This document shows positions 1 to 217 of a stretch of DNA of 217 bases, in pieces. The DNA comes from Escherichia coli. GTDB taxonomy: Bacteria; Pseudomonadota; Gammaproteobacteria; Enterobacterales; Enterobacteriaceae. Both the position numbers and the translations under genes were made by a program. Position 1 is the first letter of the stretch. Every line of letters begins with the position of its first letter. The DNA is taken from assembly GCF_003334385.1 (NCBI RefSeq), contig NZ_QOWN01000228.1; one strand, given 5' to 3'. The notes under the pieces were generated by a model. It searched no databases, was not told where the DNA came from, and saw nothing but the letters and a program-made list of their open reading frames with translations.

Positions 1-217
1 CCGCGTGTAGAACACCAGGCGGTGCTGGCTGTCGTAGTGGTGGGTCCGCTCGTCGTGCATCCGTATCACCCCTTCCGGGATGCGGTCCGTCTTCTCCGCC
101 AGCCTGCCGTATTCATCGTGGCGGTAGACATAGTGCGCATCTTCCGCGATGCGGTTATCCGGCCATGCCGTGAGCGTGCTGTCCGGGTGCAGTTCCGGGT
201 CCGGCAGCCGGTTTCCT
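1..217 (-). CDS. rhs: Rhs-family / YD-repeat protein, conserved core region (internal fragment, truncated at both window edges)
   Basis: Seen in sequence: minus-strand frame with codons at + 216..1 is open for all 72 codons and translates to [72 protein letters not shown]. The other two minus frames carry stops (TAA at + 155-157, TGA at + 68-70). About 85% of codons end in G/C (61/72). Established knowledge: YD-repeat-like motifs ([19 protein letters not shown]) and overall similarity to enterobacterial Rhs core sequence as recalled. Family-level symbol only; the paralogue (rhsA/B/C/D etc.) cannot be assigned from this fragment. Confidence 0.88.

Follow-up and report, generated by a model that had tools for sequence, protein, structure and literature searches.

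A 217-nt segment of an Escherichia coli Rhs core lies in an exact identity tract between tandem rhs genes, a probable joint for switching of toxin tips

The window lies within the core of an Rhs gene

The stretch of E. coli DNA analysed here, 217 nt long and referred to below as the window, has a G+C content of 64.5% and is open from end to end in minus-strand frame 2 (all 217 nt). The 72-aa peptide read from this frame matched the NCBIfam model NF041261 RHS_core at profile positions 921–994 of 1261 (E = 1.3e-43), and Pfam returned only a weak RHS_repeat match for the same fragment (residues 29–44, E = 0.93). We based the family assignment on the NCBIfam match and on the full-length protein. 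The window was matched at 100% identity in strain ETEC1749 (NZ_CP122712.1 4196904–4197120), within the coding sequence of WP_151309019.1, and on account of this match ETEC1749 stands in for the source of the window in what follows. The full-length ORF of 1,408 aa in ETEC1749 scored 2562.4 bits against a curated RHS_core cut-off of 2000, starts with ATG and covers the whole profile (positions 1–1261), so that the core gene is complete. Moreover, the gene carries the RefSeq label ‘RHS element core protein’ at all three places in which the window was matched at 100%. Hence the window lies inside an Rhs core, as had been supposed from the letters of the sequence. The features of the window itself are as follows (window coordinates).

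1..217, minus strand: internal coding segment of the Rhs core, codons 921–993 of 1,408, in the YD-repeat shell (from the reading frame, the RHS_core profile and the 100% genome match)
100..126, minus strand: YD-repeat motif YRHDEYGRL (consensus YxYDxxGRL), residues 31–39 of the peptide (from a regular expression, with the weak Pfam RHS_repeat match)

In the full protein, YD repeats were found in five stretches (TIGR01643, E = 6.4e-47), followed by the Rhs-associated core domain (TIGR03696, aa 1178–1255), and Pfam RHS (PF03527) was also matched. The boundary motif PxxxxDPxGL is present as PIRYTDPLGL at aa 1246–1255. The core of the gene has a G+C content of 63.7%, whereas that of the 153-aa tip is 43.7%. 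This tip (L001 10753–11211 in the ETEC1749 locus) matched the YkuD L,D-transpeptidase domain (PF03734) with a Pfam E-value of 4.7e-4, which suggests a putative toxin acting on peptidoglycan. The N-terminus of the protein (MSGKPAARQGD...) is similar to those of other Rhs proteins. We infer that the protein is a clade-I E. coli Rhs, namely a PAAR-type, vgrG-linked type VI secretion effector, with delivery and toxin activity presumed.

Other contents of the window were also considered. Rfam families gave no match on either strand of the window at E-values up to 1. An antisense gene was rejected: plus-strand frame 1 likewise has no stop codon within the window, and in ETEC1749 an antisense ORF of 204 aa (L001 11728–12342) overlaps it, but nothing was found to support a gene. 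The antisense open frame looks like a by-product of the composition of GC-rich, repetitive coding DNA.

A tandem Rhs locus between dnaQ and fadE

In ETEC1749, two full-length Rhs genes lie in the same orientation between vgrG and yafV/fadE. This vgrG-linked site between dnaQ and fadE is position 1 of Jackson et al. (2009, PMC2935791). The order of the locus is vgrG, the upstream core (1,506 aa), a 378-nt ORF, ISEc1, dsORF-h1 and the downstream core with the window, and then a small ORF (split in two), an IS66 insertion, ISAs1 and yafV. vgrG is thus directly upstream of the tandem pair, and the upstream element separates the gene of the window from it. At the same locus in ETEC1732, hcp and tss genes are located beyond vgrG. 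The 245-aa tip of the upstream gene (L001 17558–18292) gave no Pfam match, and dsORF-h1 (149 aa, L001 15056–15505), immediately upstream of the core of the window, gave no NCBIfam HMM match; dsORF-h1 is in a position that would suit an effector chaperone.

The small ORF that follows the YkuD-type tip (L001 10384–10775 in ETEC1749, minus strand) is the presumed immunity gene. The ORF is intact in ETEC1732, where it is 393 nt long and its product has a lipobox-like N-terminus; in ETEC1749, whose toxin gene is intact, it is divided into two ORFs by the loss of 1 nt at nt 207, and VR50 carries the same pair of protein accessions for the split ORF as ETEC1749. An IS66-family insertion lies between the downstream Rhs element and the yafV-side ISAs1 both in ETEC1749 (L001 7367–9982) and in SCPM-O-B-9504 (L009 14754–17368). 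The two ISAs1-family copies on either side of the downstream element are ∼96% identical and could also be substrates for deletion. In relatives that retain the downstream core, the upstream core is truncated at its 5′-end (L009 4968–7448; L010 8393–10403): in SCPM-O-B-9504 an IS1 adjoins partial tssH and tssA, and in CP8-3_Sichuan the truncated upstream core is fused to a truncated icmF-type gene. The type VI secretion side of the locus is decaying in some lineages.

Copies of the window in E. coli genomes

Copies were surveyed by megablast of the window against 5,426 complete E. coli genomes, and the window was matched at 8,840 places in 3,652 of these genomes; the number of places per genome had a median of 2 and did not exceed 6. 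When the whole element was used for the search, the median was 7 places per genome. Matches at ≥99% identity were confined to 3 of the 5,426 genomes, the porcine enterotoxigenic strains ETEC1749, ETEC4085 and rl0044, in which the window was matched at 100% and four places were found in each. The original prediction of a multi-copy repeat family is thus borne out, the window being neither single-copy nor free of paralogs. We located the four megablast places of ETEC1749 by walking along the chromosome, and the Rhs copies were compared with the window as follows.

Downstream core, position 1: the window itself, 100%
Tandem upstream core, 7,081–7,087 nt away in direct orientation (L001 19082–19304): 0 mismatches, one 6-nt gap
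rhsD, position 3: 91.3% identity to the window
vgrG-linked core at yncG-pptA, position 6: 89% identity to the window
rhsC and its orphan core fragment, position 5: ∼78% identity to the window, matched by blastn only
Frameshifted clade-IV Rhs adjoining nfrB: no DNA match to the window

Copies in ETEC1749 are accordingly found at positions 1 (two copies), 3, 5 (with the additional orphan fragment) and 6. Copies at the rhsA/rhsB positions 9–11 of this strain, if any, would be below megablast detection for the window, since the four megablast places are all assigned to the loci above. The clade-IV Rhs gene was ruled out as a copy of the window, having no similarity to it at the DNA level. This clade-IV-type locus between cusS and nfrB (L004 7021–13947) comprises vgrG, a gene for a DcrB-related protein and the frameshifted Rhs gene.

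Over the whole core, identity to the gene of the window was 89.1% for the tandem neighbour, 78.5% for rhsD, 78.3% for the position-6 core and 72.7% for rhsC. No copies share >95% identity over the whole core, as rhsA, rhsB and rhsC of K-12 do; near-identity is confined to blocks, and one of these blocks holds the window. The original prediction had also expected several near-identical copies in the genome, and in this respect it was correct about the number of copies but not about their similarity: the Rhs family is multi-copy, yet the window has just one near-identical partner, the tandem upstream core, and the others stand at the 91.3%, 89% and ∼78% given above.

A 504-nt identity tract with a private 6-nt deletion

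When the two tandem cores were compared per 150 nt, their identity ranged from 56 to 100%, and the window fell in the longest exact block. This block comprises nt 2644–3147 of the downstream core and consists of 295 + 209 nt interrupted by a 6-nt indel alone; past nt 3760, identity to the upstream core collapses. As a test of chance, the observed differences were placed randomly in 20,000 trials and the longest identical run was recorded, which gave a mean of 54 nt and a maximum of 126 nt, against the 504 nt of the tract. Between the window and rhsD or the position-6 core there are 13–19 differing sites, and with rhsC included the three paralogs show 13–40 differences; in both comparisons the differences are mostly synonymous. 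Because the paralogs differ from the window mainly at synonymous sites, the tract is not invariant through constraint. The pattern of the tract points to gene conversion or crossover that has recently exchanged sequence between the two core types, and the mosaic as a whole, in which exact blocks alternate with blocks of 56–78% identity, is best explained by past events of the same two kinds. The parts of the window concerned are given in the next lines (window coordinates).

34..217: 184-nt exact duplicate in the upstream core, part of the 504-nt tract (k-mer check)
1..39: 39-nt exact duplicate in the upstream core, across the deletion from 34..217 (alignment, and k = 31 substrings with start positions 1–9)
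34..39, ambiguous within 34–45 (L001 12034–12039): site of an in-frame 6-nt deletion, one GTAGTG unit against two elsewhere (alignment of all copies)

The 6-nt deletion is the sole difference between the window and the upstream core. In the coding sense, a CACTAC unit is lost and HHYHYD becomes HHYD. Both units are kept by all paralogs in ETEC1749 and by the downstream-core orthologs of two other strains, in which the peptide reads HHYHYD or HRYHYD. Moreover, the element made up of dsORF-h1 and the downstream core is present at ≥99% identity in 173 genomes, and in nearly all of the matches listed it spans 4,759 nt, versus 4,753 nt with the deletion. Because the paralogs and orthologs keep two units and nearly all the listed elements are 4,759 nt long, the deletion is a derived in-frame loss of one tandem unit, restricted to the clone of three genomes. 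The loss probably arose by replication slippage.

The more distant copies offer much shorter homology, since the longest exact match of the core of the window was 59 nt with rhsD, 64 nt with the position-6 core and 28 nt with rhsC. Thus large duplications of the kind seen with rhsA and rhsB of K-12 are not expected from this core. Neither of the two tandem cores contains a Chi site, and stimulation by Chi is therefore not the explanation of the joint.

Chimeric cores in other strains

Both products predicted for a crossover between the tandem cores were built in silico, and each was searched against the complete genomes. The query for the deletion-type chimera, R1, joined nt 1389–3165 of the upstream core to nt 3148–4227 of the downstream core, and it was present uninterrupted as a single core (100% coverage, 99.2–100% identity) in at least 28 of the 5,426 complete genomes. 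The reciprocal chimera R2, with the left part of the downstream core and the upstream tip, was not found in these genomes, the best full-length match being 97.0%.

ETEC1732 was compared with ETEC1749 in detail. Its locus consists of hcp, vgrG, one core of 4,245 nt, a small ORF, ISAs1 and yafV; the length of the core is exactly that predicted for the chimera, and the VgrG protein of ETEC1732 has the same accession as that of ETEC1749. Up to nt 2938, 365 of the 366 informative positions of the ETEC1732 core are of the upstream type; from nt 3148 onwards, 603 of 604 are of the downstream type, and the core has one private change. There is thus a single switch between core nt 2643 and 3148, i.e. 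in the tract, and the toxin tip is exchanged. The flanks of the two loci differ at 14 of 7,336 sites (∼0.2%), and hence the two strains are not a recent parent-product pair.

Other strains switch elsewhere. In VR50 the switch is at nt 2073–2109, UMNK88 has an additional downstream-type patch at nt 2109–2427, and the cores of PEC408, UTAK-1 and F8704-2 are complex mosaics. Because the switch points differ in this way, exchange between these core types is recurrent, and the tract of the window is one of several joints. Taken with the length of the 504-nt tract, which is beyond chance, the occurrence of R1 in at least 28 genomes and the breakpoint of ETEC1732 inside the tract provide comparative evidence for the original proposal that such cores act as substrates for homologous recombination; the proposal extended to the switching of toxin tips, and the change of the ETEC1732 core from upstream to downstream type within the tract, with its tip exchanged, agrees with this part too.

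The upstream-type tip was also met outside the tandem arrangement. In F8704-2 it occurs with the 378-nt ORF and ISEc1/ISAs1 at position 6 (L015 2619–9103, adjoining pptA), and in UTAK-1 the upstream-type tip module is the sole element at position 1 (L016 2616–9116, adjoining yafV). Being found at positions 1 and 6, the tip module moves between chromosomal positions.

Proposed recombination between direct repeats and alternative explanations

From these comparisons we consider it likely that the tract holding this segment of the Rhs YD-repeat shell serves homologous recombination between direct repeats and thereby switches the toxin tip. A crossover between the direct repeats in the tract would delete 7,087 nt, comprising the upstream tip, its small ORF, ISEc1, dsORF-h1 and the 5′ part of the downstream core, and would leave a single vgrG-linked core bearing the downstream toxin tip. 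In reverse, the reaction would add this module, so that by deletion or by insertion alike the tip on the vgrG-linked gene would be switched. Efficient RecA-mediated pairing requires a minimum of ∼25–50 nt, and the uninterrupted stretches of 295 and 209 nt are well above this length. Homologous recombination between direct repeats is the simplest reading of the R1 chimeras; that it was of the RecA type and between tandem paralogs is our inference from the sequences compared, and its direction may have been deletion from a tandem or insertion into a single core.

The chimeras and the tract could instead have come from horizontal transfer followed by allelic exchange at the orthologous locus between strains, and we regard this origin as possible but rather unlikely. 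It would fit the many switch points, which differ by strain, and also the fact that F8704-2 carries the upstream-type tip, its small ORF and ISEc1 at position 6, whilst UTAK-1 has them at position 1 as the sole element; the complex mosaics of PEC408, UTAK-1 and F8704-2 fit inter-strain transfer as well as intragenomic exchange. The 14 differences in 7,336 sites of flanking sequence between ETEC1732 and ETEC1749 point the same way, and tips common to different loci and strains have been described (Jackson et al. 2009, PMC2935791). However, the ETEC1732 core is exactly what a single crossover between the ETEC1749 pair would produce (it agrees at 968 of 970 informative sites and has the predicted length), the VgrG accessions of the two strains are identical, and an imported fragment would itself have needed the same kind of crossover elsewhere. 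Sequence comparison alone cannot tell an intragenomic crossover from allelic exchange after horizontal transfer; under allelic exchange the window would serve recombination all the same, without being the cause of an intragenomic rearrangement.

A stronger version of recombination between direct repeats is that the 504-nt tract is a maintained switching joint, in which selection keeps the tandem copies identical for reversible reloading of the vgrG-linked gene with the downstream YkuD-type toxin, and not a single conversion patch among many. We think this improbable; if it were true, the many strains with exact R1 would represent repeated independent events at the tract.

It might also be argued that the window is practically unique and has no potential for rearrangement, the other copies being too diverged to recombine or to confuse mapping. 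Indeed, the whole 217-mer has no exact second copy because it spans the private 6-nt deletion, every substring of ≥185 nt is unique, exact carriers were limited to 3 of the 5,426 genomes, and the distant paralogs share at most 59–64 nt of exact identity with the core. But shorter pieces of the window behave otherwise: 35 of 68 150-mers, 85 of 118 100-mers and 165 of 187 31-mers are duplicated exactly in the upstream core. Moreover, 295 + 209 nt of perfect homology lie 7 kb away in direct orientation, and products of crossover at the tract exist in other strains. We therefore hold such a practically unique window to be quite unlikely. The original prediction that the window may not map uniquely thus fails for the full 217-mer and stands for sub-reads of up to 184 nt, about half of the 150-mers being ambiguous. 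In related strains that retain the 6 nt, the whole window would be exactly duplicated where the upstream core still covers the stretch. In strains with the tandem locus, a short read from the tract may map to either gene of a pair separated by 7 kb, and variant calls or coverage in the tract should not be trusted without long reads.

Finally, the exact identity is very unlikely indeed to reflect purifying selection or codon constraint on the Rhs shell rather than recent exchange: the window is somewhat more conserved than the average of the core (91, 89 and 78% against 78.5, 78.3 and 72.7% for rhsD, the position-6 core and rhsC), but these same copies depart from it through mostly synonymous changes at 13–40 positions, so variation is tolerated, the difference-free run of 295–504 nt is longer than in any of the 20,000 random placements (maximum 126 nt), and the exact blocks give way abruptly to blocks of 56–78%.

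Comparison with known systems

The feature is an ordinary and well-understood one in E. coli genomes; its biology is already known and it opens no new question. The E. coli Rhs elements rhsA–rhsE have long been described (Lin, Capage and Hill 1984, as cited in PMC3967940), and like other clade-I elements of this species the gene of the window has a GC-rich core ORF (∼3.7 kb) of YD repeats that is present in several copies per chromosome, followed after PxxxxDPxGL by an AT-rich variable tip and a small downstream ORF, with an associated ISAs1 (H-repeat). In K-12, rhsA and rhsB are distant loci with near-identical cores and gave a large duplication under laboratory selection, whereas here the near-identical partner is adjacent. 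The core of the window is of the position-1, vgrG-linked type, 73–79% identical to the rhsC and rhsD types of the same genome, and its homology is a patchwork instead of extending over the whole core.

A parallel is known from Salmonella Typhimurium, in which recombination of rhs-main with its orphan through 522 bp at 95% identity gave an Rhs chimera whose toxin was new (Koskiniemi et al. 2014, PMC3967940). As in that system, the copies at position 1 are direct repeats in one locus with ∼0.5 kb of shared core; the delivery part of the first gene would be fused to the tip of the second, with removal of the first tip and its immunity gene. Recombinants that join the first core to the second tip via the shared tract, the R1 cores of at least 28 genomes, are known here from comparison. 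The second copy in Salmonella is a 5′-truncated orphan without its own start, whereas both copies in ETEC1749 are full-length genes with putative PAAR-type N-termini. Moreover, the Salmonella event was observed experimentally after duplication of the locus, but the present evidence, for 504–510 nt at 100%, is comparative alone. The locus thus offers a natural example of a known process, in which the conserved Rhs core is the joint for the exchange of toxin tips, and adds to the known cases one in which both recombination partners are full-length genes.

A homologous-recombination model for displacement of Rhs C-terminal tips was put forward by Jackson et al. (2009, PMC2935791), and the mechanism considered here is like it in that recombination in the conserved core would excise or insert a core fragment together with a tip, at the same position 1. 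The same study found that dissociated tips are generally lacking at clade-I loci of E. coli and that cores from one position group together, recombination between loci being limited. Unlike this picture, the tandem full-length pair and the many switch points described above speak for frequent exchange within position 1. Such exchange is now visible because far more genomes are available, and recombination among the position-1 cores of E. coli is much more frequent than could be seen in the 2009 survey of 20 genomes. A related arrangement was proposed for CdiA-CT/CdiI orphan modules, where conserved sequence before the variable tip would let the main gene reload a downstream tip (Poole et al. 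2011, PMC3150448). These too are polymorphic toxin loci with a conserved joint upstream of a variable tip; they belong to another protein family with two-partner secretion, and the joint is a short VENN-encoding region.

Inversions had been named in the original prediction among the possible outcomes at Rhs cores. These Rhs loci are all in one orientation in K-12 (Jackson et al. 2009, Table 3, PMC2935791), and from one shared orientation deletions or duplications, not inversions, are expected; no natural large rearrangement via rhs had been reported as of that study. Among the ETEC1749 copies inspected, no Rhs-bounded inversion was found. ETEC1749 does carry a large inversion, probably not mediated by Rhs in view of this shared orientation and of the position-6 Rhs, which has both of its K-12 flanks intact and so is not an endpoint. 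The inversion is roughly centred on the terminus (NZ_CP122712.1 ∼2.47–2.87 Mb versus 3.69–4.21 Mb): gene order is reversed relative to K-12 around fadE, rhsD and rhsC and is the same as in K-12 around yncG, dosP, ydiJ and katE.
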